NCBI GenBank assembly: GCA_039621445.1
Contig: CP154954.1
Span: forward strand, 17,390,589-17,454,588
From: Euglena gracilis
Taxonomy: Eukaryota
Direction of reading: 5' to 3'
DNA: 64,000 nt
A program made the translations under genes and the position numbers. How positions within the stretch are numbered: position 1 is the first letter of the stretch; each line of letters opens with the position of its first letter. Shown here piece by piece: positions 16,351-61,382 of this stretch. The notes below the pieces were generated by a model, which worked only from the letters and a program-made list of their open reading frames with translations, made no database searches and was not told the origin of the DNA.

Positions 16351-16859
16351 AGGGGCCGCCCAGGCCCCAGGGGAGGAGGCCTGGGCAGGCAGTCAAAACC
16401 CCGAGCCGGAGACCGGCAAGAGGAAGTGCACGAGGTGAGAACCGTGCAGGTGTGCTCCACCACCCTGTCCAGGCATCGAGAGGAGGAAGGATGGCAGGTG
16501 GTGGAGAAAAAGAAAAGAAACCGCAAGCCAAGACAATCACCTCCGATGACACAACCCGACAAGGATCAAGGCGCAAAGGGAAGGAAGGAAGAAGGGGAGA
16601 GATCTATGCCAAGGAAATGGCAAAGATCAACAACGAAGAACAACAACCACTCCAAGGGAAAAGGAAGTAAGAAGGAGGAACGACAACCTCATCGCGACAA
16701 CCACCTCAAGGGTCAACATCTACCACACAACACCCTCCCCGCGACACCAACCGGCATCCACAACAAGAAAAGCAACACCTACCCCAAAGAAAGCAACATC
16801 CACTGCGCGACACCGACCGGCATCCACCACAAGAAGAGCACCCAAGAAGCCTAACAGCC

Positions 16860-18170: not shown

Positions 18171-18212
18171 ACGCCAGAAGAAAAAGAGAAGCACCAGCAG
18201 AGCCGCGGACGC

Positions 18213-18820: not shown

Positions 18821-18949
18821 AGGCACAGGACCACAAGCAGCGAAGCAGAAGGAGCAGTGTCCAACAGCCAAAGTGCAAGAGGTGACCATCAAGCCGTGGC
18901 ACGTAAAGCCGGCCCGCTTTCGAGTGGGCAGGATGCAAAGGAGAGGAGG

Positions 18950-19320
18950 CGGATGCCAGCTGCTGCTGGAAGTGACCGTGGAAGCCAATGGTGAGTGCTA
19001 CCAAGCAAAAGCGCTCATCGACACCGGAGCCCAGACGTCTCTCTGCCGGAGGGACCTGCTGCCAGAAGCCTGCTTCACGCAGTCCAGCAAGCCGCTGCTG
19101 CTCAAGACAGTGAGTGGCGAAGAGCTCAACGGAGGGAAGAACGAGGCCACCCTCACACTCTCCTTCGAGGCAAGGAGTGAACCGAAGAGGGCGTGCCAGT
19201 GGGCAGCCAGTGGAGCAGCACCGTCACCGCACACGACGGGGACATCGGCTGCGACCTCATCCTCGGATATCCGTGGTTGAAGGTCAATCGCCTCGACGTG
19301 CAGCCGTGGAGAGATGCACT
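18950..19320 (+). CDS. Retropepsin-type aspartic protease
   Basis: KALIDTGAQTSL (DTG ~19020-19028) and C-terminal DLILGYPWL, separated by a one-base frameshift near 19180-19200. Confidence 0.85.
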
Positions 19321-21947: not shown

Positions 21948-24885
21948 CTGCTGCGATGGTCGTACCTGCAAACCCTGGCGGCCAAGGGGAAGAAGTTCCG
22001 GCTGGAGGGCCCCCCCGACACCGTCCTCCACGACCTCCGCCGGGCGCTGAACCAGTACACCGAGTGGGCAGCGCGCAGCAACCCCACCGACGCCACCTAC
22101 CTCCGGAAGCTGGGCGAGTGGGCCGACGCCGTGGAGGCCCGCTGCACCACCAACTGGCGGTGCTCGGCCGTCAGAGAAGAGCTGGTCCCCACCGGCTTCC
22201 CGGGCCTGTCACAGCAAATGCGGGAGGCCCACCAGGTCCTCGTCTTCCTCCACGACGACCGGGCCCCCCACGGCCTGATGTTCGTTTGCAAGCGCTGGTA
22301 CCAGAAGCAGATGGCCACCTACCTGGCGGACTCCACCGTGTTCGAGGACGTGACCGACACCTGGAGGGAGGTGGTTGCCCGGCTGTCGGAGGTCAACCAG
22401 CGGTTGCACTTCCCCACTGGCGCCGGTGTCGTCTACAACTACGGCATCTGGAAGCCAGCGAAGAAGAAGTTCCGGTTCATTGCCGGGACCCGCAAGAACC
22501 CCGATCCCGACCCCGGGTCCCCCGCCCCCGCCTCTGAGTCCGCCCCCGCCTCCGCCCCCACCGCCTCCAAGGAGCCCCCCCGGCAGCCCCTCTATGCCCT
22601 GAGCAAGGCTTTGGTGTCGCTCCTGAAGCACATCGAGGTCGCCCTCCGGGAAAAGGACGAGCGGCGGCAACAGCAGGAGGGCATCAAGGCGTTCTGGGGA
22701 ATCGACAGCGTGGAGTCTTTCGTCCGGATGGTCCGAACCCACTCCAAGGACATCCTGGCGGGGGGCTTGGAGACGGCGGACTTCACGACGATGTACACGG
22801 CCTTCACCTTCGACGCCATCATCGAGCGGACCATGGAGTCGGCCAAGGAGGCCTGGGCCTTCGTGCGGGAGACCAAGACCCCCGCTGGGGTGGACCCCGC
22901 CACCCCACCGTCCCTCACCACCGGCGGCTGGTCGTGGGATGGCCTCGGCTACTCCTTGGATGACCTGAAGGAGCTGGTGGCCGTGGCGGTGCAGAACAAC
23001 TACACCTGCAATGGCGGAAGGGTCCGGCGCCAGATCCGGGGCATGCCCATGGGCCTCCCCCCGGCCCCGCAGCTGGCCAACCTGGCCTGCTACCCCGTGG
23101 AGCGCGACCACATGTACGCCCTCCCTCCCCAGCTCCGGTCCTCCGCCGTGTCCCGATACATCGACGACATCGTCCACCCCACCACCATGCCCCTCCCCTC
23201 GGCAGCCGAGTACGGCATGGAGTACAAGACCACCGGCTCCGGCGAGTCCGTGGTGTGCCTGGGCGTCCGAGTGTACATCCAATGCCATTCCAACGGGGAC
23301 CGCGTGGTGCACACCACCGTCCACGACCGGGAGGAGGAGTACCCCCACCACATTGTTCGCTACCCCCTAGCCACCACCACCGCCCCCACCGAGCAGCTGG
23401 GCGGGGTCATCATGGGCCGCCTGGAGTTCGCCCGGATGGCCTGCAGCCACATGGGGGATTTCAAGCAGTCAGTGGCCAACGTCTTCCGCAACGCCATCTG
23501 GCGGGGGTACTCTCGCCGCCTGGTGCAATCGGTGTGGAGCCGCTTCCTCTTCCAGCGCTGGCATGCCGCCGACATCCGCGTCCGTGAGCTCCGCACCTGG
23601 TTTTCCAAGGTGTGGAAGTGGCTCCACTCCAGCCCCCACCGCGCTCCCCCAGCCCCATGGGCCACCGCCCTCCCCCTCGATGAGGCCCATGCCCCCTCCC
23701 AGGCCGACTTTCTCTCCGTCTTCGGCCACCCCGCACCCCTCCCCGGGGGCATCGACGACTTGCTGGCCGAGATGACGCCGCCCCCTTCCCCCTCCGCCTC
23801 CCATCCCTCCGACGTGGACGTGATGATCATCGACCGGGAGGCCCACGTGCGCCACGGCAAGCAGCAGGCCCCGAGAGGAGCGTCCCGATCCGTCCACTGG
23901 CCAGGGCTCAGAGAGGGGGACGCCCCAGAGGTGAGGTGCGCCCAATCCGTGAGCAGCAAGGGCAAGGACCCGGGGGTGATGCCGCCAAGGATCCCGCCCC
24001 CGGCGAGCCCGGGCGAGCCTCTACCAATCAGTCAAGAGGAGGGGGACGCCCCAAACAGCCGCAGCACCAGGCCGGCCCACACCGGGGCGGGGTTTACGCC
24101 GGGCAGTGAACCGGGGGTGACGCCGCCAAGGATCCCGCCCCCGGGGAGCCCGGGCGGGCCTGAGGACAGCGAGGGGGACGCCCCGAGCCACGGACTGGCC
24201 CACACCGTGACGGGGTTTACGTCGGGCTGTGAACTGGGGGTGACGCCGCCAAGGATCTCAGCCCCAGGGAGCCCGGGCGGGTCCGTGATCGTGCTGCCAG
24301 GACCGGCCTAAGAGCACGCGCGGGACGCCCCAAGCGACAGGCTGGCCCACACCGGAGCGGGGTTTACGCTGGGCGGTGAACCGGGGGTGACGCCGCCAAG
24401 GATCTCGCCCCCGGGGAGCCCGGGCGGGCCTGAGAGTTGCCAGCCCACGGCCATGGAGACAGAGACGGACGCCCTCGAGGGGGTTGCAGCGCAGCCAAGC
24501 ACCGCCTCCCAATCCCCCATCGCCCCAACGGCTCCCACAGCCTCCCAAGGCCCCCCTCTCTCCAACCCGGACTCCGCCTCCCCAACCCCATGCCTCCCCC
24601 CACCCACCCGTGAGGTCCTCCAGGAGCGGGTCGTCATCGTCGAGAGGCAGGTCCCCGTTCCCGTGCGGGAGCCTGTCTTCGTGGATCGGGTCATCGAGCG
24701 GGTCGTCCCTGTCCCCGTGCAAGTCCCCGTGGAGGTCCGGGTCCCCATGCCCGTCCCCGTCCCCGTGGAGGTCCGGGTTCCCGTCCCCATCTACCTCCCT
24801 CCCTCCGCGCCACAAGCCCCCTCCATCGTGCAGAATGTGCATCTCAACGCACTCACCATCGGCCCCTCCTCCTCCTCGTCTTCCT
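21948..24885 (+). mobile_element. Penelope-like element copy C, 5'-truncated (RT plus part of the C-terminal extension)
   Basis: TADFTTMYT, QIRGMPMGLPPAPQLANL and RYIDD (23157-23168). Near-identical in inverse to ~26078-29928. TAA at 24309-24311 where copies B and D read TCA. Confidence 0.9.
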
Positions 24886-26639
24886 GCCGCAGAGGGGGGA
24901 GGCCTCGCACGGGTTGCACGCCCACCTCCAGCCGGTGCGGCCCGAACTGGAGGGCCGGAGATACCAGCTCCGGCAGGCCGGGGGTGGCACACCTGCGATG
25001 TCACCGCCTCCGCGTCCGTGCTGGTCGTCGTCTCCTGCTGCCGCCGCTGCCGCCGCCGTCCGCCGCGACGATGGCCTTGCAGGGGCTCCCACGGGTTGGG
25101 ATGAGAGGGGATCGGAGGGGGGCCGGCCCCTGCCTCCCTCTCTCTCTCTCTCTCCTCTCCGCGATGGTCTCAATGCGGTTGGGGGCTCCGACTCCCCCCG
25201 AAAGTGGCGTTGAGCTTGGCATTTTTCCTGCAGCTTCTTCAGCTCCTTGCTGAGGGCGGAGATGCTGTCCGCCATCCTTTTGATCTCCTTGTGCAGTGCC
25301 GCCCCTCGCCGGCTCTGCACCGGTGTCCATGCGACACCTTCGTCTCTTCGGTCTCTTTCTTCTCCTCGGGGTGGGTTGCCCTGCGCACTCCCAGGGCGAG
25401 AGGGTCTCGAAAATCTCATGGCTGCTGAAGAAAAAGAATCCCCAGGGCGGCGCCCACGGGCCGCTTCCCTGTTGGGTCGCCAAGGGGCTTGGGGCCGGGG
25501 CAAATCCCGCTTCGCTTGCTCCCCTGCGGACGGGGTTGCGGGGCACAGGCACCACGCTGCCTGCCACCCGCCCGGACTTGGCTCGGTCTCGCTCCGGGGA
25601 CGTGGCTCCCGGAGGGTTGGTGGCCCTGGTGGGGGCCGTGGGGGTGGCGCCTTGGACCGGGGTGATCGGCCTCCCCGATCCTGGCACCTTCATGCCAGTC
25701 GTGCGTCTGGCGCTCGAGGTCCGCGGGGCGCTCGACGTTCTGGGCTGCTGCGGCTTCTTGCCATTCTTGGATGATGCTCCGCCGCTGGGGGCCGCACGAG
25801 GCCCAGACCTGGTTCTGCAGGTCCGGGTCCCATGATTCGTACATGGCTTGTCCTCGTCCTGCTTCTCGTGGATCCTTCAGCACCGCCTTCCACTCCTCGT
25901 ACTTGGCTCGCCACTCGGCAGGCCACTCACTCAATGAAGTGAACTTCCTCTTCTTCGTGGGGCCTTGGGAAGAGGTGTCGTCGTCGGTGGTGTCGCTGGG
26001 GGGCGGGGGGGGAGCAGTGAGGAGGGGGCGGTTGGGGGCCTCGATGGCGGGAATGGGGAGACCTTGGAGGAGGGCCAAGGAAGACGAGGAGGAGGAGGGG
26101 CCGATGGTGAGTGCGTTGAGATGCACATTCTGCACGATGGAGGGGGCTTGTGGCGCGGAGGGAGGGAGGTAGATGGGGACGGGAACCCGGACCTCCACGG
26201 GGACGGGGACGGGCATGGGGACCCGGACCTCCACGGGGACTTGCACGGGGACAGGGACGACCCGCTCGATGACCCGATCCACGAAGACAGGCTCCCGCAC
26301 GGGAACGGGGACCTGCCTCTCGACGATGACGACCCGCTCCTGGAGGACCTCACGGGTGGGTGGGGGGAGGCATGGGGTTGGGGAGGCGGAGTCCGGATTG
26401 GAGAGAGGGGGGCCTTGGGAGGCTGTGGGAGCCGTTGGGGCGATGGGGGATTGGGAGGCGGTGCTTGGCTGCGCTGCAACCCCCTCGAGGGCGTCCGTCT
26501 CTGTCTCCATGGCCGTGGGCTGGCAACTCTCAGGCCCGCCCGGGCTCCCCGGGGGCGAGATCCTTGGCGGCGTCACCCCCGGTTCACGCCCAGCGTAAAC
26601 CCCGCTCGGTGTGGGCCAGCCTGTCGCTTGGGGGCGTCC

Positions 26640-27590
26640 CCCCTCCATCTCCTTCCACTCACCTCTCATCCCCCTCCGCCCCGCTCCCGCGGGTGGAGGG
26701 GATCCTCTCCCTCGTCCCCCATACGCACCCTCTCCGCAGCTCCCTTCACGCCCGCCTGCATCCCCGTTCCCTGACACCCCCTCGTAACCCCCCCCCCCGC
26801 TCTTCTCTCCTGCTTTCCCTCACCTCCTTCACTCCCACTCCCTCCATCTTTGTGCCCCCCCCTCTCCCGTGCCTCCCCTTTCCTCCTCACGCCCTGCCTC
26901 TCCTTCCATCACCTCTTCCCCCCTCCCCTGGCTCCCCCCCCCTCACTCCTCCTCCCCCGCCTCCTTGGCCAGTTCCGCTTCCTCCTTTCTCCTTGGCCCT
27001 CATCCAATTCTTTCGCCCCGGCTCCGATGCTCGACCCTTCCCCTGCCTGACTGGGCTTCCTTGCACCCTCACCTTCTCCCCCTCCCCATCCTCCCAACTT
27101 CTTCACCACCCACCCCCTCCACTCCCCCTTTCTCTTCACGTGTGCCTCCCTTTCCACTCCTCTAGTTGCTCGCCCCCACCTCGCCCACCATGCCTCATGT
27201 CACCCTTTTCTACCTCCGGCGGGTCCTCCCAGCCCCACCCATCCCATCTGTACTTCCTCTGCTCCGTTCTCACTTTGTCTCCCTTTCCACATACGCCATT
27301 CTTTCATCGCTTCCCCCACTCCCTCTTAGCGCTCCCCACCCCCCCCCGACCCGCCTCAGACCTTTCCCCCTCGTCCCCATCCTTCCACAGCACCCGCACT
27401 CTGCCATCCCCGTACCTCCACCTTTCCTCCCCCGCTCTGGTCCTTGCCCGCCTCACCCCCCCGCGTCTCGCTGGCTCCTCCCTCTCACTACAACCCCACC
27501 CCCGCCCCATCCTTGCTCCGCCCCTCTCCCCCACGTCCCCTCCTTCCCCCGTCTTGTGCCCTCTCCTCCCCCTCTATTTTCCTGGCAGCA
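26640..27590. other. Non-periodic pyrimidine-rich block, probable read/consensus artefact
   Basis: Replaces a ~50-nt segment that is intact in copies B (~34095-34145) and D (~60065-60115). No repeat unit, TIR or TSD is visible. Confidence 0.65.
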
Positions 27591-30500
27591 GGCACGGCCG
27601 CCGGGCTCCCTGGGGCTGAGATCCTTGGCGGGTCACCCCCAGTTCACAGCCCGACGTAAACCCCGTCACGGTGTGGGCCAGTCCGTGGCTCGGGGCGTCC
27701 CCCTCGCTGTCCTCAGGCCCGCCCGGGCTCCCCGGGGGCGGGATCCTTGGCGGCGTCACCCCCGGTTCACTGCCCGGCGTAAACCCCGCCCCGGTGTGGG
27801 CCGGCCTGGTGCTGCGGCTGTTTGGGGCGTCCCCCTCCTCTTGACTGATTGGTAGAGGCTCGCCCGGGCTCGCCGGGGGCGGGATCCTTGGCGGCATCAC
27901 CCCCGGGTCCTTGCCCTTGCTGCTCACGGATTGGGCGCACCTCACCTCTGGGGCGTCCCCCTCTCTGAGCCCTGGCCAGTGGACGGATCGGGACGCTCCT
28001 CTCGGGGCCTGCTGCTTGCCGTGGCGCACGTGGGCCTCCCGGTCGATGATCATCACGTCCACGTCGGAGGGATGGGAGGCGGAGGGGGAAGGGGGCGGCG
28101 TCATCTCGGCCAGCAAGTCGTCGATGCCCCCGGGGAGGGGTGCGGGGGGGCCGAAGACGGAGAGAAGGTCGGCCTGGGGGGGGGCATGGGCCTCAGCGGG
28201 GGGGGGGGCGGTGGCCCATGGGGCTGGGGGAGCGCGGTGGGGGCTGGAGTGGAGCCACTTCCACACCTTGGAAAACCAGGTGCGGAGCTCACGGACGCGG
28301 ATGTCGGTGGCATGCCAGCGCTGGAAGAGGAAGCGGCTCCACACCGATTGCACCAGGCGGCGAGAGTACCCCCGCCAGATGGCGTTGCGGAAGACGTTGG
28401 CCACTGACTGCTTGAAATCCCCCATGTGGCTGCAGGCCATCCGGGCGAACTCCAGGCGGCCCATGATGACCCCGCCCAGCTGCTCGGTGGGGGCGGTGGT
28501 GGTGGCTAGGGGGTAGCGAACAATGTGGTGGGGGTACTCCTCCTCCCGGTCGTGGACGGTGGTGTGCACCACGCGGTCCCCGTTGGAATGGCATTGGATG
28601 TACACTCGGACGCCCAGGCACACCACGGACTCGCCGGAGCCGGTGGTCTTGTACTCCATGCCGTACTCGGCTGCCGAGGGGAGGGGCATGGTGGTGGGGT
28701 GGACGATGTCGTCGATGTATCGGGACACGGCGGAGGACCGGAGCTGGGGAGGGAGGGCGTACATGTGGTCGCGCTCCACGGGGTAGCAGGCCAGGTTGGC
28801 CAGCTGCGGGGCCGGGGGGAGGCCCATGGGCATGCCCCGGATCTGGCGCCGGACCCTTCCGCCATTGCAGGTGTAGTTGTTCTGCACCGCCACGGCCACC
28901 AGCTCCTTCAGGTCATCCAAGGAGTAGCCGAGGCCATCCCACGACCAGCCGCCGGTGGTGAGGGACGGTGGGGTGGCGGGGTCCACCCCAGCGGGGGTCT
29001 TGGTCTCCCGCACGAAGGCCCAGGCCTCCTTGGCCGACTCCATGGTCCGCTCGATGATGGCGTCGAAGGTGAAGGCCGTGTACATCGTCGTGAAGTCCGC
29101 CGTCTCCAAGCCCCCCGCCAGGATGTCCTTGGAGTGGGTTCGGACCATCCGGACGAAAGACTCCACGCTGTCGATTCCCCAGAACGCCTTGATGCCCTCC
29201 TGCTGTTGCCGCCGCTCGTCCTTTTCCCGGAGGGCGACCTCGATGTGCTTCAGGAGCGACACCAAAGCCTTGCTCAGGGCATAGAGGGGCTGCCGGGGGG
29301 GCTCCTTGGAGGCGGTGGGGGCGGAGGCGGGGGCGGACTCAGAGGCGGGGGCGGGGGACCCGGGGTCGGGATCGGGGTTCTTGCGGGTCCCGGCAATGAA
29401 CCGGAACTTCTTCTTCGCTGGCTTCCAGATGCCGTAGTTGTAGACGACACCGGCGCCAGTGGGGAAGTGCAACCGCTGGTTGACCTCCGACAGCCGGGCA
29501 ACCACCTCCCTCCAGGTGTCGGTCACGTCCTCGAACACGGTGGAGTCCGCCAGGTAGGTGGCCATCTGCTTCTGGTACCACCGCTTGCAGACGAACATCA
29601 GGCCATGGGGGGCCCGGTCGTCGTGGAGGAAGACGAGGACCTGGTGGGCCTCCCGCATTTGCTGTGAAAGGCCGGGGAAGCCGGCGGGCACCAGCTCTTC
29701 TCTGACGGCCGAGCACCGCCAGTTGGTGGTGCAGCGGGCCTCCACGGCATCGGCCCACTCGCCCAGCTTCCGGAGGTAGGTGGCGTCGGTGGGGTTGCTG
29801 CGCGCCGCCCACTCGGTGTACTGGTTCAGCGCCCGGCGGAGGTCGTGGAGGACGGTGTCGGGGGGGCCCTCCAGCCGGAACTTCTTGCCCTTGGCCGCCA
29901 GGGTTTGCAGGTACGACCACCGCAGCAGCTCGGACTCGTTGCTCACCACGTGGCCCTCGTGGAAGGCCGCCGGCTCCTTCCGGCGGAGGGCTGTGTGGCA
30001 CTGGCAGCCCTCGAGGTCGTCGGCCTGCGCGGCGGCCACGTCCAGCTCGCTGGAGACCTGGGCGTAGTTGCACAGCCACGCCTGCCACTGCGGGGCGAAC
30101 TTGTCGCAGACCATGATGGCGGCGGCGACGTCCGGGTTGGGGTGGAGCTTGTAGACGGCCTCCTCCCGCAACACCTTGCGCAGCTCCAGGTGGCGGGCGC
30201 CGTTGTTGGAGTAGGAGAACTTCAGGAACTGCCGCTCGGGGGCCTCCTTCCTCTTCGCCTTGATGAGCTCCACCAGCTTGCACTCCAGGGAGAGGTGGCC
30301 GGAGCGCCGCTCGTCGTCCGGGACGTGCTGTTGCAGCCAGTCCAGGGTGGAACACAACCGCGCCTTGCCCCAGGAGCGTGCCTCCGCCAGGGCGCTGGAG
30401 TCCCCTTGGTGGCAGCGGCGGAGCCACTTGGCTAGGTCAGGGCTGGGCGGAGGGTCGCCTTGGGATGTGGGGGCGGGGTCGGGGCTGGGGAGGGTGTGCT

Positions 30501-30635
30501 GGCGGCGGAGCACCTTCCGGCTGACGGGGAAGCCGGGGTAGGCGGCGTTGAAGCCGTGGGGCCACATGGAGTTGAGGAGGCCCACCCACTTGCGCTCGCG
30601 GGCGAGGGCATCCCGGGGGGGGGGGGGGGGGGGGT

Positions 30636-30673
<38 letters not shown>

Positions 30674-31304
30674 CGGGGGGGGGGGGGGGGTGGGGGGGGG
30701 GGGGGGGCGCGGCCCGGGGGAAGCTGTCTGGTGAGGGGAGCCTCTCGATGGGGATCATGAGGAAGGAGAAGGGGGTGGGGTCGTTGGCCAGGGCGTCGTG
30801 CAGGGCGTCGGCGCAGCGCCCCCGGCTCCACCAGTGCTCCTTGGTCCGCTTGTAGACCTTCCGCGTGGTCTGCCCAACGTAGAGCCGCCCCGTGGGGAAG
30901 TGGAAGAGGGCGTAAATCCAGCCAGGGGCGTCCCACAGGGCGGCCACGTTGCCCCAATCCACGGCGGCATTGGCTGGGTCGGAAGAGCGGAGCTGCAGGA
31001 CCCTGCGCATGGTCTTGTTGCGCCAGGATTGCCGCCCCCAGCTGCGCTGCATCCACTGAAGGTGGTCCTGCCAGCTCCACTGCCCCTCGTTGCGGCGGTG
31101 GCGGGACGGCTGGGGGTCATGCTTGTCGTAGGGCTCGGCGATGGGGAGGGCGCGGTCATCCCGGGAGTGGGATGGCCTGGGGGGCCTTCGGGAAGAGGGT
31201 TGCCCGGGAGGGCGCTCGGGGGGAGGCCTGGGGGTGCGAGAAACCTCACCAGGCAATTCTGAGTGGACCCCGGGGAAAGCTCCCCGAGCCGCAGGGACTG
31301 CGGA

Positions 31305-31680
31305 AATCTCTCTTCTTGATTGGTATGGACGGGGTATTCTGGGTGCGGGTGGGGGTGGGGATGGGAGGGGATGGGGAGGGAGGTGGGGGGGCGCCGCAGA
31401 GGGGGGAGGCCTCGCACGGGTTGCACGCCCACCTCCAGCCGGTGCGGCCCGAACTGGAGGGCCGGAGATACCAGCTCCGGCAGGCGCCTCGCAGGGAGGG
31501 CATACATGGGATGCCGCTCCGATCGGAGGGGGGCCGGCTCGTCGTCTGCCGCCGCCGCCGTCCGCCGCGACGATGGCCTCGCAGGGGATCCCACGGGTTG
31601 GGATGAGAGGGGATCGGAGGGGGGCCGGCCCTTGCCTCCCTCTCTCTCTCTCTCTCTCCCCTCCGCGGTGGTCTCCTCCG
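31305..31680 (-). repeat. pLTR-like direct repeat of the Penelope-like family
   Basis: The same block recurs at ~32050-32625 (with a ~95-nt subunit triplicated), ~58030-58400, ~24886-25165 (partial) and ~37767-38145 (diverged). It occurs both before the ORF start and at element 3' ends. Confidence 0.85.
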
Positions 31681-31818
31681 CGGTCTCTCTCTCTCTCTTC
31701 TGAATCGGTGTTGCTGGGGGAACTCCTTGGGGGGAACTCCTTGCCGACCCGAGAGTGTGTGCTTGTGGGGGAAGTGTGTTGTCAGTCGGTGTGGGCGCGT
31801 GTGTTGTCAGTCTGTGTT

Positions 31819-31891
31819 GCGGTTTCGCCCCAGGCTGGCAGGTGGGGCATCGTCAGGGGTGACGACCCTGCCAACCCTCGTCCCCGACCGC
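31819..31891 (-). ncRNA. Type III hammerhead ribozyme
   Basis: Minus strand reads GCGG-UC/GGG-GACGA-gggUUGGCAggg-UCGUC-a-CCC-CUGACGA-U-GCCCCA-CCUGCCAGCC-UGGGGC-GAAA-CCGC. The core is complete, stems I-III pair, and GUC cleavage is predicted between 31886 and 31885. Confidence 0.92.
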
Positions 31892-32035
31892 GCTTGTCTG
31901 TGTGGTGCAGACCGTTACAAACGAGCTCTGCGTCCCCCTCCGGGGGGGGGGGGGGGGGGGGGGGGGCTGAAAAAAACCGGCCCCAAAAACAAGGCAGCGC
32001 GGGACGGAAAAATGGTCCACTACCTACGGGGCACC

Positions 32036-35000
32036 CTCTCTCTCTCTCTCTCTCTCTTCTTGATTGGTATGGACGGGGGATTCTGGGTGCGGGTGGGGGT
32101 GGGGATGGGAGGGGGTGGGGGGGTGCCGCAGAGGGGGGAGGCCTCGCACGGGTTGCACGCCCACCTCCAGCCGGTGCGGCCCGAACTGGAGGGCCGGAGA
32201 TACCAGCTCCGGGGTGAGGGAGGTGGGGGGGTGCCGCAGAGGGGGGAGGCCTCGCACGGGTTGCACGCCCACCTCCAGCCGGTGCGGCCCGAACTGGAGG
32301 GCCGGAGAGCTCCGCTCCGGGTGAGGGAGGTGGGGGGGTGCCGCAGAGGGGGGAGGCCTCGCACGGGTTGCACGCCCACCTCCAGCCGGTGCGGCCCGAA
32401 CTGGAGGGCCGGAGATACCAGCTCCGGCAGGCCGGGGGTGGCACACCTGCGATGTCGCCGCCTCCGCGTCCGTGCTGGTCGTCGTCTCCTGCTGCCGCCG
32501 CTGCCGCCGCCGTCCGCCGCGACGATGGCCTCGCAGGGGATCCCACGGGTTGGGATGAGAGGGGATCGGAGGGGGGCCGGCCCTTGCCTCCCTCTCTCTC
32601 TCTCTCTCTCCCCTCCGCGGTGGTCTCGATGTGGTTGGGGGCTCCGACTCCCCCCGACAGTGGCGTTGAGCTTGACATTTTTCCTGCAGCTTCTTCAGCT
32701 CCGCGCTCAGGGCGGAGATGGTGTCCGCCATTCTCTTGATCTCCTTGTGCAGGGCAGCCCCTCGCCTGCTCTGCACCGGCGTCCATACGTCGCCTTCTTC
32801 TCTTCTGCCTCTTGCTTCATCACGGGGTTGGTTGCCCTGCGCACTCCCAGGGCGAGAGGGTCTTGTAGATCTCATGGCGCTTGAACTTTGTGATTCCCCA
32901 GGGCGGTGCCCACGGGTCGATTCCCTGTTGGGTCGCCAAGGGGCTTGGGGCCGGGGCAAATCCCGCTTCGCTTGCTCCCCTGCGGACGGGGTTGGCGGGG
33001 CACAGGCACCACGCTGCCTGCCACCCGCCCGGACTTGGCTCGGTCTCGCTCCGGGGACGTGGCTCCCGGAGGGTTGGTGGCCCTGGTGGGGGCCGTGGGG
33101 GTGGCGCCTTGGACCGGGGTGGTCGGCCTCCCCGATCCTGGCACCTTCATGCCAGTCGTGCGTCTGGCGCTCGAGGTCCGCGGGGCGCTCGACGTTCTGG
33201 GCTGCTGCGGCTTCTTGCCATTCTTGGATGATGCTCCGCCGCTGGGGGCCGCACGAGGCCCAGACCTGGTTCTGCAGGTCCGGGTCCCATGATTCGTACA
33301 TGGCTTGTCCTCGTCCTGCTTGTCGTGGGTCCTTCAGCACCGCCTTCCACTCCTCGTACTTGGCTCGCCACTCGGCAGGCCACTCACTCAACGAAGTGAA
33401 CTTCCTCTTCTTCGTGGGGCCTTGGGAAGAGGTGGGGGCGGCGGTGGTGTCGCGGGGTGGGGGGGGGGGGGTGGGGTGGAGGAGGCGGTTGTGGGCCTCG
33501 ATGGCGGGAATGGGGAGACCTTGGAGGAGGGCCAAGGAAGACGAGGAGGAGGAGGGGCCGATGGTGAGTGCGTTGAGATGCACATTCTGCACGATGGAGG
33601 GGGCTTGTGGCGCGGAGGGAGGGAGGTAGATGGGGATGGGGAACCCGGACCTCCACGGGGACGGGGACGGGCATGGGGACCCGGACCTCCACGGGGACTT
33701 GCACGGGGACCGGGACGACCCGCTCGATGACCCGATCCACGAAGACAGGCTCCCGCACGGGAACGGGGACCTGCCTCTCGACGATGACGACCCGCTCCTG
33801 GAGGACCTCACGGGTGGGTGGGGGGAGGCATGGGGTTGGGGAGGCGGAGTCCGGGTTGGAGAGAGGGGGGCCTTGGGAGGCTGTGGGAGCCGTTGGGGCG
33901 ATGGGGGATTGGGAGGCGGTGCTTGGCTGCGCTGCAACCCCCTCGAGGGCGTCCGTCTCTGTCTCCATGGCCGTGGGCTGGCAACTCTCAGGCCCGCCCG
34001 GGCTCCCCGGGGGCGAGATCCTTGGCGGCGTCACCCCCGGTTCACCGCCCAGCGTAAACCCCGCTCCGGTGTGGGCCAGCCTGTCGCTTGGGGCGTCCCC
34101 GCTCGGCTCTGAGGCCGGTCCTGGCAGCACGATCACGGACCCGCCCGGGCTCCCTGGGGCTGAGATCCTTGGCGGCGTCACCCCCAGTTCACAGCCCGAC
34201 GTAAACCCCGTCACGGTGTGGGCCAGTCCGTGGCTCGGGGCGTCCCCCTCGCTGTCCTCAGGCCCGCCCGGGCTCCCCGGGGGCGGGATCCTTGGCGGCG
34301 TCACCCCCGGTTCACTGCCCGGCGTAAACCCCGCCCCGGTGTGGGCCGGCCTGGTGCTGCGGCTGTTTGGGGCGTCCCCCTCCTCTTGACTGATTGGTAG
34401 AGGCTCGCCCGGGCTCGCCGGGGGCGGGATCCTTGGCGGCATCACCCCCGGGTCCTTGCCCTTGCTGCTCACGGATTGGGCGCACCTCACCTCTGGGGCG
34501 TCCCCCTCTCTGAGCCCTGGCCAGTGGACGGATCGGGACGCTCCTCTCGGGGCCTGCTGCTTGCCGTGGCGCACGTGGGCCTCCCGGTCGATGATCATCA
34601 CGTCCACGTCGGAGGGCTGGGAGGCGGAGGGGGAAGGGGGCGGCGTCATCTCGGCCCGCTCGTCGTCGCTGCCCCCGGTGACGCGTCCGGGGTGGCCGAA
34701 GCCGGAGAGAAAGTCGGCCTGGGGGGGGGCAAGGGCCTCAGGGAGGGGGAGGGCGTGGGCCCGTGGGGTTGGGGGAGCGCGGTGGGGGCTGGAGTGGAGC
34801 CACTTCCACACCTTGGAAAACCAGGTGCGGAGCTCACGGACGCGGATGTCGGTGGCATGCCAGCGCTGGAAGAGGAAGCGGCTCCACACCGATTGCACCA
34901 GGCGGCGAGAGTACCCCCGCCAGATGGCGTTGCGGAAGACGTTGGCCACTGACTGCTTGAAATCCCCCATGTGGCTGCAGGCCATCCGGGCGAACTCCAG

Positions 35001-37766
35001 GCGGCCCATGATGACCCCGCCCAGCTGCTCGGTGGGGGCGGTGGAGGTGGTGAGGGTTTAGCCAACAGTTTGGTGGGTGTACGCGTCCTCCCTGTCGTGT
35101 ACGGTGGTGTGCACCACGCGGTCCCCGTTGGAATGGCATTGGATGTACACTCGGACGCCCAGGCACACCACGGACTCGCCGGAGCCGGTGGTCTTGTACT
35201 CCATGCCGTACTCGGCTGCCGAGGGGAGGGGCATGGTGGTGGGGTGGACGATGTCGTCGATGTATCGGGACACGGCGGAGGACCGGAGCTGGGGAGGGAG
35301 GGCGTACATGTGGTCGCGCTCCACGGGGTAGCAGGCCAGGTTGGCCAGCTGCGGGGCCGGGGGGAGGCCCATGGGCATGCCCCGGATCTGGCGCCGGACC
35401 CTTCCGCCATTGCAGGTGTAGTTGTTCTGCACCGCCACGGCCACCAGCTCCTTCAGGTCATCCAAGGAGTAGCCGAGGCCATCCCACGACCAGCCGCCGG
35501 TGGTGAGGGACGGTGGGTGGCGGGGTCCACCCCAGCGGGGGTCTTGGTCTCCCGCACGAAGGCCCAGGCCTCCTTGGCCGACTCCATGGTCCGCTCGATG
35601 ATGGCGTCGAAGGTGAAGGCCGTGTACATCGTCGTGAAGTCCGCCGTCTCCAAGCCCCCCGCCAGGATGTCCTTGGAGTGGGTTCGGACCATCCGGACGA
35701 AAGACTCCACGCTGTCGATTCCCCAGAACGCCTTGATGCCCTCCTGCTGTTGCCGCCGCTCGTCCTTTTCCCGGAGGGCGACCTCGATGTGCTTCAGGAG
35801 CGACACCAAAGCCTTGCTCAGGGCATAGAGGGGCTGCCGGGGGGGCTCCTTGGAGGCGGTGGGGGCGGAGGCGGGGGCGGACTCAGAGGCGGGGGCGGGG
35901 GACCCGGGGTCGGGGTCGGGGTTCTTGCGGGTCCCGGCAATGAACCGGAACTTCTTCTTCGCTGGCTTCCAGATGCCGTAGTTGTAGACGACACCGGCGC
36001 CAGTGGGGAAGTGCAACCGCTGGTTGACCTCCGACAGCCGGGCAACCACCTCCCTCCAGGTGTCGGTCACGTCCTCGAACACGGTGGAGTCCGCCAGGTA
36101 GGTGGCCATCTGCTTCTGGTACCAGCGCTTGCAAACGAACATCAGGCCGTGGGGGGCCCGGTCGTCGTGGAGGAAGACGAGGACCTGGTGGGCCTCCCGC
36201 ATTTGCTGTGACAGGCCCGGGAAGCCGGTGGGGACCAGCTCTTCTCTGACGGCCGAGCACCGCCAGTTGGTGGTGCAGCGGGCCTCCACGGCGTCGGCCC
36301 ACTCGCCCAGCTTCCGGAGGTAGGTGGCGTCGGTGGGGTTGCTGCGCGCTGCCCACTCGGTGTACTGGTTCAGCGCCCGGCGGAGGTCGTGGAGGACGGT
36401 GTCGGGGGGGCCCTCCAGCCGGAACTTCTTCCGCAGGTACGACCACCGCAGCAGCTCTGACTCGTTGCTCACCACGTGGCCCTCGTGGAAGGCTGCCGGC
36501 TCCTTCCGGCGGAGGGCTGTGTGGCACTGGCAGCCCTCGAGGTCGTCGGCCTGCGCGGCGGCCACGTCCAGCTCGCTGGAGACCTGGGCGTAGTTGCACA
36601 GCCACGCCTGCCATTGCGGGGCGAACTTGTCGCATACCATGATGGCTGCGGCGACGTCCGGGTTGGGGTGGAGCTTGTAGACGGCCTCTTCCCGCAACAC
36701 CTTGCGCAGCTCCAGATGGCGGGCGCCGTTGTTGGAGTAGGAGAACTTCAGGAACTGCCGCTCGGGGGCCTCCTTCCTCTTCGCCTTGATCAGCTCCACC
36801 AGCTTGCACTCCAGCGAGAGGTGGCCGGAGCGCCGCTCGTCGTCCGGGACGTGCTGCTGCAGCCAGTCCAGGGTGGAACACAGCCGCGCCTTGCCCCAGG
36901 AGCGTGCCTCCGCCAGGGCGCTGGAGTCCCCTTGGTGGCAGCGACGGAGCCACTTGGTTAGGTCGGGGCTGGGCGGGGGGTCGCCTTGGGATGTGGGGGC
37001 GGGGTCGGGGCTGGGGAGGGTGTGCTGGCGGCGGAGCACCTTCCGGCTGACGGGGAAGCCGGGGTAGGCGGCGTTGAAGCCATGGGGCCACATGGAGTTG
37101 AGGAGGCCCACCCACTTGCGCTCGCGGGCGAGGGCATCCCGGCGGGCGAGGGCGCGGCGGTCAGCCCGGGGGAAGCTGTCGGGTGAGGGGAGCCTCTCGA
37201 TGGGGATCATGAGGAAGGAGAAGGGGGTGGGGTCGTTGGCCAGGGCGTCGTGCAGGGCGTCGGCGCAGCGCCCCCGGCTCCACCAGTGCTCCTTGGCCCG
37301 CTTGTAAACCTTCCGGGTGGTCTGCCCAACGTACAGTCGCCCCGTGGGGAAGTGGAAGAGGGCGTAAATCCAGCCGGGGGCATCCCACAGGGCGGCCACG
37401 TCGCCCCAGTCCACGGCGGCGTTGGCTGAGTCGGTGGAGCGGAGCTGCAGGACCCTGCGCATGGTCTTGTTGCGCCAGGATCGCCGCCCCCAGCTGCGTT
37501 GCATCCACTGCAGGTGGTCCTGCCAGCTCCACTGCCCCTCGTTGCGGCGGTGGCGGGACGGCTGGGGGTCGTGCTTGTCGTAGGGCTCGGCGATGGGGAG
37601 GGCACGGTCATCACGGGAGTGGGACGGCCTGGGGGGCCTTCGGGAAGAGGGTTGCCCGGGAGGGCGCTCGGGGGGAGGCCTGGGGGTGCGAGAAACCTCG
37701 CCAGGCAATTCACGGTGGACCCGGGGTGGACCCCGGGGAAAGCCCCTCGAGCCGCACGGACTGCGA
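32036..37766 (-). mobile_element. Penelope-like element copy B, full-length layout with frameshifts
   Basis: ORF pieces 35453-37708, 35058-35465, 33384-35009 and 32024-33937. GIY-YIG WIYALFHFPTGRLYVGQTTRKVYKRAKEH...ERKW at ~37090-37375 and YIDD at 35253-35264. Ends in the pLTR plus (GA)n. Confidence 0.92.
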
Positions 37767-40700
37767 AATCTCTCTCTTGATTGTTATGGACGGGGATTCT
37801 GGGTGTGGTTGTGAGTGGGGATGGGTAGGGGGATGGTTAGGAGGTGGGGGGGTGCCGCAGAGGGGGGAGGCCTCGCACGGGTTGCAACGCCCACCTCCAT
37901 AGCCCGGTGGGCGGCCCTAACTGGACGGATACCAGTACCAGGCTCCGGCAGCCGGGGGTGGCACACCGCTGCGACCCCCCTTGGGGGCCCGCTGCCTCCC
38001 CCACGTCCGTGCCGGTGTCGTCTCCGCTGCGCCGCTGCCGCCGCCGTCCGCCGCTTGACGATGGCTCTCGCAGGGATCCCACGGGTTGGGATGAGAGGGG
38101 GTCGGAGGGGGGCTGGCCCTTGCCTCTCTCTCTCTCTCTCTCTTTTACCACGTGGGTTTCCCTTGCCTTCCTTCGCCTTGCCCCCTCCCCCCATCCCTTG
38201 GCCTCCTGGTCCCCCCCGGTGGTGCCCGGTCTGTCCTGGCGCTCTGGGCTGCCCTTTCCCTTGCCCCCCTCCCCCCCTTCCCTTGGCCCCTCTCCGGTCC
38301 TCCGGGGGGCTGCCCGTCTGTCTAGCGCGCTGGGCTGCCCCTTCCCCCTCCCCCCTCCCTTGCCTGCTGGTGGGTGTGTGGCGGTCCCCGTGCGTGCGTG
38401 CGTGCTGGGGGGGCGGCGCTCCCCCCATGGGCTCCGCACGCCTTTCACGCCACCCCCGGACCCCGCGCCAGGGCCCGGGGGCCCGGGGATGCCACCGCCG
38501 GCGAGCCCCCCACCCCCCAGGGCCCCGTCGGCGTGGTACACCTCGTTCTGGTACCCGCATGACGGGCACGGCTGGCAGGTTCCGTGCCCGGCACGCGGGT
38601 TTCGGGGATCTCCGTGGCCGTGTCGATCTTGGGCTCCGTCGCCTCGTCCTCGGCCTCGTCCTCCCCGTCCTCCGCGTCCTCGTTGCTCTGGTGGCGGCTG
38701 CCTGCTCGCTTGGCGGCTTGGGGGTTCAAACCCAATGGATCTCTTCCGCCCCCGGCGTTGTTGCTGTGGCTGCAGGGGGGCCCAGGGGTTGTCGTCCCTT
38801 AGGTCCGGTCGTTGCTGCTGCTGCTGCGGGGGCGGATTCTGCCGCCATTGGTCGAGCTCTTGCTGCATTTCTTGCAGCGCCCGTTGGAGCCCTTGGAGGC
38901 GCTTTTGGAGGCGTTTTCGGCCGGTGCTTTGTGCTGTTTGCCAGCCCTCTCCTTGGGGTTGGCCCTGCCGGCTTCCTTGTGGGGTGACGTTTCCTTTGCC
39001 ACCCTTGCCTCCTTTCCTGGGCTGTGTCTGCCCTTTTCCTGTTTGTTGTCCTCCTCGCTGGGCCCCCCCTTTTGGGTTGGGCTGTTGGTACCCTCTTTGG
39101 GGTGGTCCGGGGTTCTTTGCTTCCCCGATCCGTGCCCCTTTCTTCCAGTCGTGCTGGTCTTGGCTTCTGCTTCTGGGGCACGGTTCTTCTGCTCCTTCGT
39201 CCCGCTTGACGGCGTGTCGGGCCACGCCCTGCCAGTGATTGGCAGGTACCCCTGGAGATCCGCCCCAGGTCGGTTGCGGGTTCTTAGGCTGGCGCCCCGC
39301 CTGCCACCCGGGGCAGAGGTCCTCTGCGCCGGGCAGGCCGTCATTGCCTGGCATGCCTGTGATTTTTGTGCGTCATGGTGCTGGTGGGTTCTTTTTGTTC
39401 GTCGTCCCGATTGACGGCGTGCCGGGACACGCCCTGCCGGTGATCGGCAGGTACCCCTGGAGAGCCGCCCCAGGCCGGTCGCGGGTGATTCTTTGGGCTC
39501 CCCGCTTGCCCCTCGGGGGGGTCCGCTGCCGACCCTTCCTCTTCTGGGCCTGGCTGCTTCGCCTCCCCGATGCGCTGGCCTTCCTGCCAGTCGTGGCTGG
39601 TGGGTTCTCCACCTTCGTCTTCCGCTCCGGTGTGGGACCTCCGCCTCTCTTCTCGCGTGCTTCTGGCTTGGCCTTCTGCTTGGGTTGGTGGGCCTTCGTT
39701 CTCCCTCGCCTTCCATCGGCGGATCTCGTCCCTCCGCTTGTCGGCGACGGCTGCCCACACTTGGTCTTGGAGGCTTTGGTCCCACCCCTGCCACATCTCG
39801 TGGCGGTCGCTTGCTTTGGGCGTGGCCTTGAAGCGCTCGTACTGCTCCCGCCACTCTGCCGGCCACTCGGCCAAGCGCGTGTACAGCCTCTTCTTGCGTT
39901 GGCTTGGCTGGGTTGCCTGCGAGGCGTCGTCCCCTTCGGTGGGCTGTGGTGTGGCCGCCTCCTCCACCACCACCGACACTGGGCGCTTGTTGCCCAGGAG
40001 TCGGTCTGTGGCCATGGGGTCGCTTCTTGCCGGTGCCTCCTCGGTGGCTGTGGTGCTTTGTGCTTCCTGCGTGGGGGTGGCGCTCGGTGGCGGTGTGGCG
40101 CTTGTTGTTGGTGTTGGTAGGGCCGGCGTGCTGCTTGCCGCTGCTGCTGCTGCGGGCACGGGGCTGGTGCTGCCGGGTGGTGCTGCTGGCGTGGCGGTGG
40201 TGCTGGCCCCTTCCGTTGCGGGTGGTGGTAGGTTGCTGCTTGGCGGTGGTGCTGCTCCTGCCGGGGTGGTGCCTGCTGCGGGCGATGTGGGTGTGGCGGC
40301 GGTGGGTGCGTCTTCGATCGCCAGCGTGGCGCGGTGGGTGAGGTGGCGGCTCTCTTGCTGCTGCTGTTGCTGCTGCCAGATCCATCGCACCATTTCGATG
40401 AGCAGTGCCCGTTGGGGGTCCACTGCTCCTTCCGCCGGGTAGGGCTGTGGTCGCCCCATCTCCCGCTGCCACCGGGCCCTTGTCGGCCCGGTGGTGCTGC
40501 TGACCGCTTGGATCAGTCGTTGGACTGGCATGGGCAGCTGTGCGCTCGCCCCCCGGAGCAGCGCGGTCACTGCGCCGGTGTCCATCCCCGGCAGCCGCAG
40601 CGGGCGTTCCACTGGCACCAGGCGCTCCACGTGCACCGGCACCGGGTACGGTGTGGGCACTGCGCGCTCCACGACCACCGGCACGGGTACGTGGTACGGC

Positions 40701-61000: not shown

Positions 61001-61382
61001 TGGGGGCGGTGGTGGTGGCTAGGGGGTAGCGAACAATGTGGTGGGGGTACTCCTCCTCCCGGTCGTGGACGGTGGTGTGCACCACGCGGTCCCCGTTGGA
61101 ATGGCATTGGATGTACACTCGGACGCCCAGGCACACCACGGACTCGCCGGAGCCGGTGGTCTTGTACTCCATGCCGTACTCGGCTGCCGAGGGGAGGGGC
61201 ATGGTGGTGGGGTGGACGATGTCGTCGATGTATCGGGACACGGCGGAGGACCGGAGCTGGGGAGGGAGGGCGTACATGTGGTCGCGCTCCACGGGGTAGC
61301 AGGCCAGGTTGGCCAGCTGCGGGGCCGGGGGGAGGCCCATGGGCATGCCCCGGATCTGGCGCCGGACCCTTCCGCCATTGCA
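58010..61382 (-). mobile_element. Penelope-like element copy D, 5'-truncated within RT
   Basis: Begins at CNGGRVRRQIRGMPMG, has YIDD at 61221-61232 and the full C-terminal extension, and ends in the pLTR plus (GA)n at ~58010-58035. Confidence 0.9.

Follow-up and report, generated by a model that had tools for sequence, protein, structure and literature searches.

Copies of a Penelope-like retrotransposon in the window

The window analysed here is a 64,000-nucleotide stretch of the Euglena gracilis genome (GenBank assembly GCA_039621445.1, contig CP154954.1, positions 17,390,589 to 17,454,588 of the forward strand). It contains five partial or broken copies of retrotransposons that carry, in this order, a GIY-YIG nuclease, a CxC motif and a reverse transcriptase (RT), located at 21.9-41.1 kb and 58.0-61.4 kb of the window. 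Self-comparison and protein-guided mapping over the 64-kb window resolve them into a nest of tandem, inverted and truncated copies, and the GC content is ~69% at 22-40 kb compared with 47-58% in the sequence around it. Penelope-like elements are the least understood of the three classes of retrotransposon and the closest relatives of telomerase. We consider it probable that the nest consists of copies of an autonomous Penelope-like retrotransposon of the Chlamys type, belonging to a sub-lineage that is defined by a conserved 3' coding extension.

Relatives were collected by a word-indexed search, which returned 27 proteins of 34-80% identity, and by a metagenome scan, which returned 42 loci; proteins and loci are given P and L numbers below. 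The copies in the window are the following.

32036..38143, minus strand: copy D, the most complete copy (self-BLAST; tblastn with P0001 and P0028)
24885..31691, minus strand: copy BC, in tandem with D and downstream of it
21948..24885, plus strand: copy A, inverted, truncated at both its 5' and 3' ends, abutting the 3' end of BC in convergent orientation
58013..61382, minus strand: copy E, 5'-truncated within the RT, with flanks of its own
38144..~41100, minus strand: copy F, 5'-truncated, from a related second family, directly upstream of D

An initial annotation had assigned positions 24886-37766 to the family; self-comparison shows that this span is not one element but covers two tandem copies, BC and D. 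In D the modules follow one another as LTR-like (LTR, long terminal repeat) region, nuclease, CxC, RT, tail, 2A-like site, basic protein and LTR-like region. In copy D, tblastn with P0001 and P0028 reveals three frame changes; there are also a stop at 35058-35060 and an 18-nt in-frame deletion within the GxKF motif, and the 3' LTR-like region of D holds a 107-bp unit three times over (32109-32427). In BC the frame is unbroken from the nuclease to PGVTPP over 27721-30615; it has indels at 27598-27632, its frame is shifted beyond the 2A-like site, and its 3' LTR-like region breaks off at 24885. Copy A carries a TAA stop at 24309-24311, and its segment 24322-24885 is the reverse complement of BC 26078-26640 at 99.3% identity, a 563-bp inverted repeat. 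Copy F comprises ORFs (open reading frames) at 41089-39344 and 39372-37840 on the minus strand, which contain a VPV repeat, a Trp-rich domain, two 2A-like sites and a basic protein with a heptad-rich helix and a CPSCG knuckle; self-BLAST detected no DNA similarity between F and D outside the common LTR-like region, which is 83-84% identical.

Over the RT, identity between copies is 97-99%, and over the tail B is 95.8% identical to D (self-BLAST). Together with the near-identical sequence in public runs described below, this identity makes the recent activity proposed in the initial annotation plausible, although the window copies themselves are dead and their differences are even across codon positions. 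Several observations in the window weigh against an autonomous element. No copy has an intact frame, so that the single continuous ORF sought by the initial annotation is absent from the window: each copy is broken by a frameshift, a stop or a truncation, and all of them are inactive. The differences between copies are spread evenly over the three codon positions (21/18/30 for BC versus D, for example), and hence the window alone gives no sign of selection. Finally, D and BC have AGG at the codon that is the start Met of P0001, P0003 and P0024. The AGG codons lie at 37661-37687 (D) and 31209-31235 (BC) on the minus strand, where TPRPPPERP stands opposite TPMP.P or MPPP, and the next in-frame Met of D and BC is that of MQRSWG, after a conserved N-terminal block.

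Copy BC differs from D in two further places. At 30620-30712 (minus strand) an expansion of a CCN microsatellite, coding for poly-Pro within the nuclease, replaces DRRALARR and causes a frameshift. A 935-bp C/T-rich insertion at 26646-27579, unique in the window, splits BC where D has 15 bp; its plus strand reads as a proline-rich open frame, and the public runs X1 and X20 have no depth across 26768-27334 within it.

Nuclease, CxC linker and reverse transcriptase

The GIY-YIG nuclease that the initial annotation had placed ahead of an RT of the Penelope-like type was located, as were the RT motifs DFTTMYT, GMPMG and RYIDD, all on the minus strand.

37073..37375, minus strand: GIY-YIG core of D (GWIY..YVGQT..RERKWVG..LNSMWPHGFN); Pfam PF01541 at E 0.0068, below the cut-off
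37319-37375 (D) and 30867-30923 (BC), minus strand: GWIYALFHF..LYVGQT within the nuclease
36521..36535 (D) and 29995-30009 (BC), minus strand: CxC motif (GCQCH), upstream of the RT and downstream of GIY-YIG
29866-29889, minus strand: GxKF motif of BC (GKKF), after CxC
28252..29622, minus strand: RT of BC, from DDRAPHG to the thumb (WFSKVWKWL)
35621-35641 (D) and 29077-29097 (BC), minus strand: RT motif A, DFTTMYT
35367-35381 (D) and 28822-28836 (BC), minus strand: RT motif B', GMPMG
35253-35267 (D) and 28708-28722 (BC), minus strand: RT motif C, RYIDD

Pfam gave sub-threshold matches only, with RVT_1 at 20 bits (cut-off 29.6) and GIY-YIG at 17.1 bits (cut-off 22.6). The C-x-C pair is present in all 13 aligned sequences that cover it. 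In the family alignment no nuclease column before this pair has at least 60% Cys, and the CCHH and CX2-5CxxC cysteines are not present; RxxxH, RERxWV and LNSMWPxGFN are kept. The order nuclease before RT recurs in P0001, P0003, P0005, P0007, P0010, P0015, P0022 and L005.

An AlphaFold2 model of the RT (residues 440-1000 of BC) reached a pLDDT of 85.6 and a pTM of 0.80. When this model was compared with the PDB by Foldseek, the top 15 matches were all telomerase RTs (E 1.4e-8 to 4.2e-7) and group II intron RTs ranked next, a result in line with expectation for a Penelope-like RT. A sequence profile of the family run against PDB chains gave nothing significant, the best match being a retron RT at E 0.13. 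Elements with an N-terminal nuclease have an insertion in the fingers domain between RT3(A) and RT4(B); here the Asp of motif A (D235) and the Gly of GMPMG (G322) are 87 positions apart, and the model has helices at 245-266 and 294-306. The only candidate for a DKG motif, and a tentative one, is the invariant D-R-A in LHDDRAPHG; the corresponding motif is DKA in Naiad and DK in Chlamys elements (PMC8557442; this and the other publications are cited from excerpts of their text). The arrangement of the copies includes pseudo-LTRs, the tandem pair D-BC, the inverted copy A and the 5'-truncated copies E and F, and L007 likewise is a tandem.

On its diagnostic motifs and modelled fold, we conclude that the element is Penelope-like, belongs to the clade with an N-terminal nuclease and is of the Chlamys type. 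Chlamys elements combine a GIY-YIG domain that is N-terminal and lacks CCHH, a CxC motif and a GxKF motif (Craig, Yushenova, Rodriguez and Arkhipova 2021, PMC8557442), and under the criteria excerpted from that study the absence of CCHH from the predicted nuclease excludes Naiad. The permuted Naiad/Chlamys order recognised in the initial annotation is therefore retained, together with CxC and GxKF, for its Chlamys half but not for Naiad. The RT tree described below is made up of relatives from the protein and metagenome searches, and clade membership rests on the diagnostic motifs and the fold.

A conserved tail downstream of the reverse transcriptase

The RT thumb is followed first by proline-rich repeats and a VPV repeat, next by a basic patch and Trp-rich domain, and then by the 2A-like site and the basic protein. 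The initial annotation had described a long extension with repeats, a VPV repeat, a KKRK plus Trp-rich domain and a 2A-like motif; all of these modules were located, and those from the VPV repeat onwards are conserved in distant relatives.

33988..34461, minus strand: PGV(T/M)PPRI..PGSPGGP repeats, period ~141 bp (47 aa), 77-78% identical by self-BLAST
33632..33797, minus strand: VPV repeat (ERVVPVPVQVPVEVRVP..), with TRF periods of 18 and 36 bp at 33632-33716
33161..33421, minus strand: basic patch (KKRKF) and Trp-rich helical domain (WPAEW..W..W), from the alignment and the AlphaFold2 model
33110..33160 (D) and 25653-25703 (BC), minus strand: 2A-like site HDWHEGARIGEADHPGP
32354..33109, minus strand: basic protein after the 2A-like site, running on into the LTR-like region, with HPNPWDPL at 32534-32557
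32678-32749, minus strand: heptad-like helix HKEIKRMADTISALSAELKKLQEK, its coiled-coil nature judged by eye only

Since stops are rare at 69% GC, the tail could in principle be a 3' untranslated region that happens to be open. In 14.5 kb there are 112 open frames of at least 80 aa, distributed over all six frames, so that at this GC content open frames alone prove nothing, and no codon-position bias is seen among the window copies. The relatives make this reading scarcely credible. Down to 34% RT identity, and on some contigs of 45-62% GC, they keep the tail modules in order; the same order is found across relatives with 34-55% RT identity, and contigs of 45-50% GC have frames of 776-988 aa. 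Thus L008 (45% GC) has one frame of 776 aa that extends from the RT thumb to 188 aa beyond NPGP, and L010 (62% GC) has one of 1289 aa that extends from the RT to 370 aa beyond the 2A-like site. RT and 2A-like site occur in one predicted protein in six of the 27 homologues (P0013, P0015, P0022, P0025, P0026 and P0027). Three Trp residues of the tail are invariant in 12 of 12 sequences, the structural model of their domain is a confident four-helix one, and a profile finds 93 clusters (see below). We conclude from the relatives that the tail is a conserved coding extension and not an artefact of high GC content.

A maximum-likelihood RT tree of 25 rows, drawn from the 27 proteins and 42 loci, placed all eight rows with a visible tail in one group of 17 rows (support 100/100, branch length 2.23). 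The tree was rooted at the midpoint, several of its outgroup branches are long, and it omits P0002, P0004, P0014, P0016-P0021, P0023, P0024, P0026, P0027 and the other loci, which are short, partial or redundant. Rows outside the 17-row group have other tails (OTU and DnaJ in L015 and L020) or a tail that is not visible, and variable accessory tails seem to be a general habit of the clade with N-terminal nucleases. In L015, positions 850-5124 contain an OTU-like protease match at E 0.0039, below the cut-off, and a DnaJ match at E 8.7e-23; L020 is similar at 1854-3881, and P0027 has a DnaJ domain within the tail, ahead of the 2A-like site.

The modules differ in how widely they occur. Repeats similar to PGV(T/M)PPRI are present in P0001 and not in more distant relatives, and on this distribution are a recent addition found in the closest relatives only. 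Equivalents of the VPV repeat, rich in V, P and I, occur in P0010, P0022, P0024, P0025, L002, L008, copy F and many of 15 sampled HMMER matches. For the Trp-rich domain, which contains the three invariant Trp residues, AlphaFold2 predicted four helices with a pLDDT of ~90 over residues 11-77. A profile of this domain together with the site matched 93 clusters at E <= 1e-3, of which 38 were at E <= 1e-10, among 1.84 billion representatives. Pfam recognised the domain in none of 92 profile matches and in none of the window pieces. Foldseek gave no match at E <= 0.001, and the highest Z in a wide structural search was 5.5, a value of the size that generic helical bundles give. Structure prediction, which the initial annotation had recommended for the extension, thus yielded a confident four-helix model for the Trp-rich domain but no clear match to a PDB fold. 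A Myb/SANT-like assignment, considered from the Trp spacing, was dropped, there being no structural match beyond generic helical bundles.

The 2A-like site

In copies D, BC and E the sequence reads ..THDWHEGARIGEADHPGP, the site itself being IGEADHPGP. The family pattern is HxWxEGxRIGEAx[N/H]PGP, and some relatives have the canonical DGDV/IxxNPGP. GEAxxPGP is found in 32 of the 93 clusters and D[VI][EH]xNPGP in 12; two have both motifs and 51 have neither, many of these 51 being fragments. By our own reading 59 of the 93 clusters reach the site, and xPGP is kept in 45 of them and decayed (NPSP, NPRP, NPEP and others) or cut in 14. In 31 of 34 GEA-type sites the distance from Trp to the last Pro is 15 residues. 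PGP is preceded by N in 29 of the 34 sites, by H in three and by Q in two, and position 5 is S, K, D, T, Q or A, never P. Canonical-type sites, with the context W..DLTQDGD(V/I)..NPGP, occupy the same alignment column as the GEA type. Beyond the site the frame runs on for at least 100 aa in 26 of 42 cases. Copy F has two 2A-like sites ~100 aa apart (39182-39486), beside an internal 100-bp duplication of 87% identity, and two sites in series are also found in P0022, P0045, P0058 and P0063.

From the sequence pattern we infer ribosome skipping (StopGo) at this site. Several points weigh against skipping in the window copies. Their site is DHPGP, not NPGP, and the D(V/I)E that marks class A is missing. 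Class B 2A sequences, which are common in protists, have an invariant Trp at 16, Pro at 5 and N or H at 4 (Rao et al. 2025, PMC12338488), whereas in the window copies the Trp is at 15 and there is no Pro at 5. A shift of the Trp register by one residue abolished class B activity in the same study. In addition, many 2A-like peptides of eukaryotes lower protein abundance instead of causing skipping (2026 preprint, 10.64898/2026.06.17.732966).

It could accordingly be argued that the motif separates no proteins, that the element makes one very large polyprotein and that the motif acts in stalling or lowering abundance, as a protease site or as a binding motif. Such a role would agree with the departure of the motif from both tested 2A classes, with the reduced abundance caused by 70% of ORF1p and 59% of ORF2p 2A-like cases (10.64898/2026.06.17.732966) and with the His before PGP in the window, which was less active than Asn in the experiments of Rao et al. 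(PMC12338488). It is harder to reconcile with the textbook D(V/I)ExNPGP motifs that relatives have at the very same column (DGDVELNPGP in P0026, DGDVESNPGP in P0044 and P0051), with the retention of PGP in 45 of the 59 sequences that reach the site and with the serial double sites of F and the four proteins named above, an arrangement typical of polyprotein punctuation. We hold a motif that separates nothing to be unlikely, though with a real chance of being correct, and favour skipping.

The basic protein and the LTR-like region

Downstream of the 2A-like site, the predicted basic protein of D is 41% identical to P0024 over 346 columns (E 8e-57) and 45% identical to P0028, in one frame down to 32354. 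In 15 sampled relatives the recurring motifs are ..SGNHAPR.., ..QRGARAAPQAPAGE.AKG.., ..AAMR...SRPGSAQGN.., a heptad-rich helix, ..DDNPW.PL.., ..SIGF.PPSR.. and RGG tracts; a CPxCG knuckle is present in the protein of some relatives. Such a composition points to a partner that would bind nucleic acid in the manner of ORF1p or Gag. The short coiled coil of the initial annotation corresponds to the heptad-like helix; the helix is there, but it was assigned as a coiled coil by eye. A reading of the same region of L002 as a Cys protease, made by eye, was dropped when Pfam gave no match.

The region in which the protein ends was delimited as follows.

32036..32627, minus strand: 3' LTR-like region of D, ending in (GA)n (self-BLAST)
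31244-31691, 37769-38143, 24885-25171 and 58013-58401: homologues of the 3' LTR-like region of D

This LTR-like region is 370-590 bp long, ends in (GA)n and flanks the body of the element. Because the protein after the 2A-like site is conserved deep into it, we conclude that part of the 'LTR' is itself coding.

A more radical possibility is that the element has no fixed start or stop. On leaving the tail, the frame would cross the coding LTR-like region and enter the next unit's nuclease, with the 2A-like site as its sole punctuation; translation of this kind would proceed along tandem arrays or along RNA cut by the hammerhead and circularised, and the next round's product would have the 'post-2A protein' as its N-terminal portion. 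In P0024 a single unbroken frame of 1151 aa does connect one unit's tail with the nuclease and CxC of the unit that follows, residues 141-463 matching the tail, 2A-like site and heptad helix of D and residues 721-1135 the nuclease and CxC of D. Conservation of the LTR-like region as protein, the AGG that D and BC have at the start Met of relatives, and a frame in L005 that spans from before the hammerhead into the nuclease point in the same direction. Set against these are the stops in the junctions of the window, the ease with which open frames arise at this GC content and the fact that the continuous frame is found in one relative only, and we give both the frame without ends and its tandem or circular templates little chance of being correct. 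A nuclease-RT frame that is followed, behind the 2A-like site, by a second protein remains the preferred reading.

A type III hammerhead motif between copies D and BC

The initial annotation associated a type III hammerhead with the element. Such a motif is present in the spacer between D and BC, outside the repeated LTR-like region.

31818..31892, minus strand: type III hammerhead-like motif between D and BC, with a predicted cut after C 31886, between GUC and G
31893..32035, minus strand: spacer from the 3' end of D to the hammerhead, with (C)25 at 31942-31966, unique in the window

Its parts are the GUC site, helix I, CUGAcGA with one extra U, helix II, GAAA, an open helix III and long loops. 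A descriptor search of the window and 129 kb of related loci returned three instances: one in the window and two, identical to each other, in L005 and L007. The L005 instance is located upstream of the nuclease frame, that of L007 between two tandem copies. A covariance model built from L005 and L007 alone scored the window site at 26 bits and E 5e-4 (64 kb, filters off), the next site being at E 0.39; this model was run on 28 of the 42 loci and the descriptor script on all 42. Between the two versions of the hammerhead, 35 of 36 cells pair and four pairs are compensatory, whereas slid controls had no compensatory pairs and 39-55% pairing. With two sequences this covariation is suggestive and not statistical. 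The bare CUGANGA..GAAA pattern occurs at chance frequency (five found, 4.5 expected), so that the case for the hammerhead rests on the helices and on the relative. Contigs of runs X15 and X16 track the window as far as 31882, 3 nt from the predicted cut, and continue in (TC)n and unrelated sequence. This end fits a copy that inserted beside (GA)n after self-cleavage had defined its 5' end.

The following results weigh against a hammerhead that belongs to the element. The site scored 18.8 bits with Rfam RF00008, compared with a gathering score of 48.5, and was seen only in a 161-base search; Rfam listed no hammerhead at the gathering score over the 64 kb or at E <= 10 over 24000-39500. A shuffle control was not significant (94/500, two distinct sequences). 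Upstream of the frames of L004 and L006, where ~600 and ~950 nt respectively were available, no hammerhead was found, and in the window it occurs once, within a 360-bp stretch unique to the D/BC junction. The end at 31882 comes from two runs of one organism and may represent a single locus. The minimum free energy fold of 31800-31900 was unexceptional (z -1.08), and in the two larger Rfam searches the only matches listed were chance microRNA-like ones on a (GA)n hairpin of the LTR-like region.

These results raise the question of whether the hammerhead is foreign to the retrotransposon and derives from a separate retrozyme-like repeat or from flanking DNA caught between D and BC. Apart from the uniqueness of the 360-bp stretch and the negative searches in L004 and L006, the F/D junction and a junction of the P0024 type are without the motif; the summed contig depth of run X1 over 31304-31870 is ~10 times that over the RT, which would fit a more abundant non-autonomous repeat; and hammerheads may parasitise elements of this kind (Craig et al. 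2021, PMC8557442). Against a foreign origin, a homologous motif stands at the same position in a relative of 54-56% identity, both upstream of the nuclease and between tandem copies. That relative shares the extra U after CUGAnGA, the GUC site, the long loops and stems with compensatory changes, and in all three cases the motif is on the same strand as the elements. We therefore think a foreign origin improbable and treat the putative ribozyme as part of the retrotransposon.

Ends, insertion sites and neighbouring sequence

The 3' ends of D and E match through (GA)n and ~8 nt more and then diverge; the spacer 31893-32035 is not common to the 3' flank of E. The truncated 5' end of E abuts one member of a duplicated 2.2-kb block (49955-52170 and 61378-63577, 98% identity), and an empty-site comparison for E with the duplicated flank 49955-52170 showed no matching 3' side. 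A convergent inverted partial copy at the 3' end is also present in the relative L010 (1793-5659), in which the long frame continues into the antisense of the second copy. Inverted copies have been described at the 5' end. The predicted protein of the relative P0007 begins in a CVCVCV run encoded by (TG)n, ~140 aa before the conserved nuclease leader, and this start fits an insertion beside a (CA)n/(TG)n microsatellite, a type of site that has been reported for Chlamys.

Near-identical sequence was found in 20 public runs from 19 studies, one of them RNA (X20, a leaf-litter metatranscriptome). The comparison used contigs only, which carry no starts, strands or expression levels; contigs of X20 touch 26 of 30 bins, and contigs cannot show transcription. 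In one X20 contig 31243 is joined to 31692, so that all 448 bp of BC's 5' LTR-like region are missing, and the joint has no GT..AG ends. It may represent a variant copy with the hammerhead spacer directly against the ORF.

The flanks of the nest hold only other repeats, and a dinoflagellate spliced-leader motif gave no match when as many as 3 mismatches were allowed. At 9509-19277 (plus strand) the window is retroelement-like, with an RT at 9509-11254 (RVT_1, E 2e-12), a frame of 1233 aa without Pfam match at 12549-16247 and a weak match to C-5 cytosine methyltransferase at 16671-19277. RT-linked DNA methyltransferases have been described from retrotransposons of dinoflagellates and charophytes (PMC5890265). 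A run of 36 N at 19798-19833 marks an assembly gap.

Proposed cycle and comparison with known systems

In the cycle that we propose, transcripts started upstream would be cut by the hammerhead, which would set the 5' end of the RNA. The nuclease-RT polyprotein would be translated, and at ..xPGP one peptide bond, that between G and the final P, would be skipped by StopGo. Skipping would release the enzyme with the Trp-rich domain at its C-terminus, and translation would go on into a separate nucleic-acid-binding protein resembling ORF1p or Gag. Proteins and RNA would then integrate by target-primed reverse transcription at (GA)n-rich sites, a route expected to give 5'-truncated, tandem and convergent inverted copies.

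If this is correct, a second protein is added to the single-ORF picture of these elements by ribosome skipping after the RT and not by an upstream ORF, a putative RNA-chaperone partner becomes testable, and 2A-like recoding extends to a further class of retrotransposon. The sites form a natural series, in which a form with Trp at -15 and the canonical forms share one position; such a series is informative about the reading of the nascent chain in the exit tunnel, and new co-expression tags could come from it. The hammerhead would be the third case in a clade reported to be almost free of hammerheads, and its 5' position would make it possible to test directly whether such ribozymes set the ends of the mobile RNA. 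With 93 clusters, the Trp-rich domain represents an uncharacterised module at a place where a target- or RNA-binding domain would be expected.

The literature searched contained no description of a Penelope-like element with a 2A-like site, and the excerpted 2A literature (Odon et al. 2013, PMC3708506; 10.64898/2026.06.17.732966) makes no mention of Penelope. In the supplement text of Craig et al. 2021, in which long runs are cut, IGEA occurs 0 times and NPGP and HPGP once each, in Chlamydomonas nuclease domains; since the runs are cut, the IGEA count of 0 is no proof of absence. The initial annotation raised the possibility of an undescribed lineage. The combination was indeed not found described, but the element is not new in kind: its defining features are those of Chlamys, in which long C-terminal extensions and exceptional hammerheads (Chlamys-2_cBra, PLE-X1) have already been reported (PMC8557442). 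On present sequence comparisons we regard the element as an apparently undescribed sub-lineage or variant within the described clade, and not as a new class.

As far as the excerpts of the Chlamys description extend, the element shares with that group a nuclease without CCHH and CX2-5CxxC, CxC followed by GxKF, pseudo-LTRs, copies in tandem, inverted or truncated form, microsatellite-like ends and variable accessory domains; the long stretch from motif A to motif B' may be a further common feature. It differs in that the accessory domains given for Chlamys are PHD, SAP, Josephin-like and zf-CCHC, a tail of VPV repeat, Trp-rich domain, 2A-like site and basic protein not being listed in the excerpted text. 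The presumed DKG position reads DRA, and the ends are (GA)n compared with (CA)n or (C)n. Two elements of Chara braunii come close in particular respects (PMC8557442). The ~1,800-aa ORF of Chlamys-1_cBra is extended at its C-terminus by a Josephin-like domain and a Cys/His motif. Chlamys-2_cBra combines a canonical hammerhead with a separate gag-like nucleic-acid-binding protein; there the gag-like protein is encoded by an upstream ORF with zf-CCHC, whereas the basic protein described here lies downstream in the same frame, behind the 2A-like site, and the hammerhead of Chlamys-2_cBra was placed at the 3' end, whereas the present one is upstream of the frame.

With respect to the 2A-like site, the L1Tc and Ingi elements also have a skipping-type motif in a retrotransposon frame beside a coiled-coil nucleic-acid-binding protein (PMC3708506; 10.64898/2026.06.17.732966). 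Their motif is near the N-terminus of ORF1p or ORF2p in APE-type elements, whereas the one described here follows the RT of a GIY-YIG element. Class B 2A sequences resemble it in the upstream Trp, the Asn or His before PGP and their occurrence largely in protists and metagenomes, and differ in having Trp at 16, Pro at 5 and the core EEGIE, compared with Trp at 15, no Pro at 5 and RIGEA (PMC12338488). The hammerhead, finally, can be set beside those of plant LTR retrozymes, which are likewise of type III and tied to terminal repeats but belong to non-autonomous elements, and beside those of canonical Penelope-like pseudo-LTRs, which are of type I whereas the present motif is of type III (10.64898/2026.07.22.740005). 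From the excerpted descriptions of both groups it is distinguished by the extra U after CUGAnGA, its long loops and its location outside the repeated LTR-like block.

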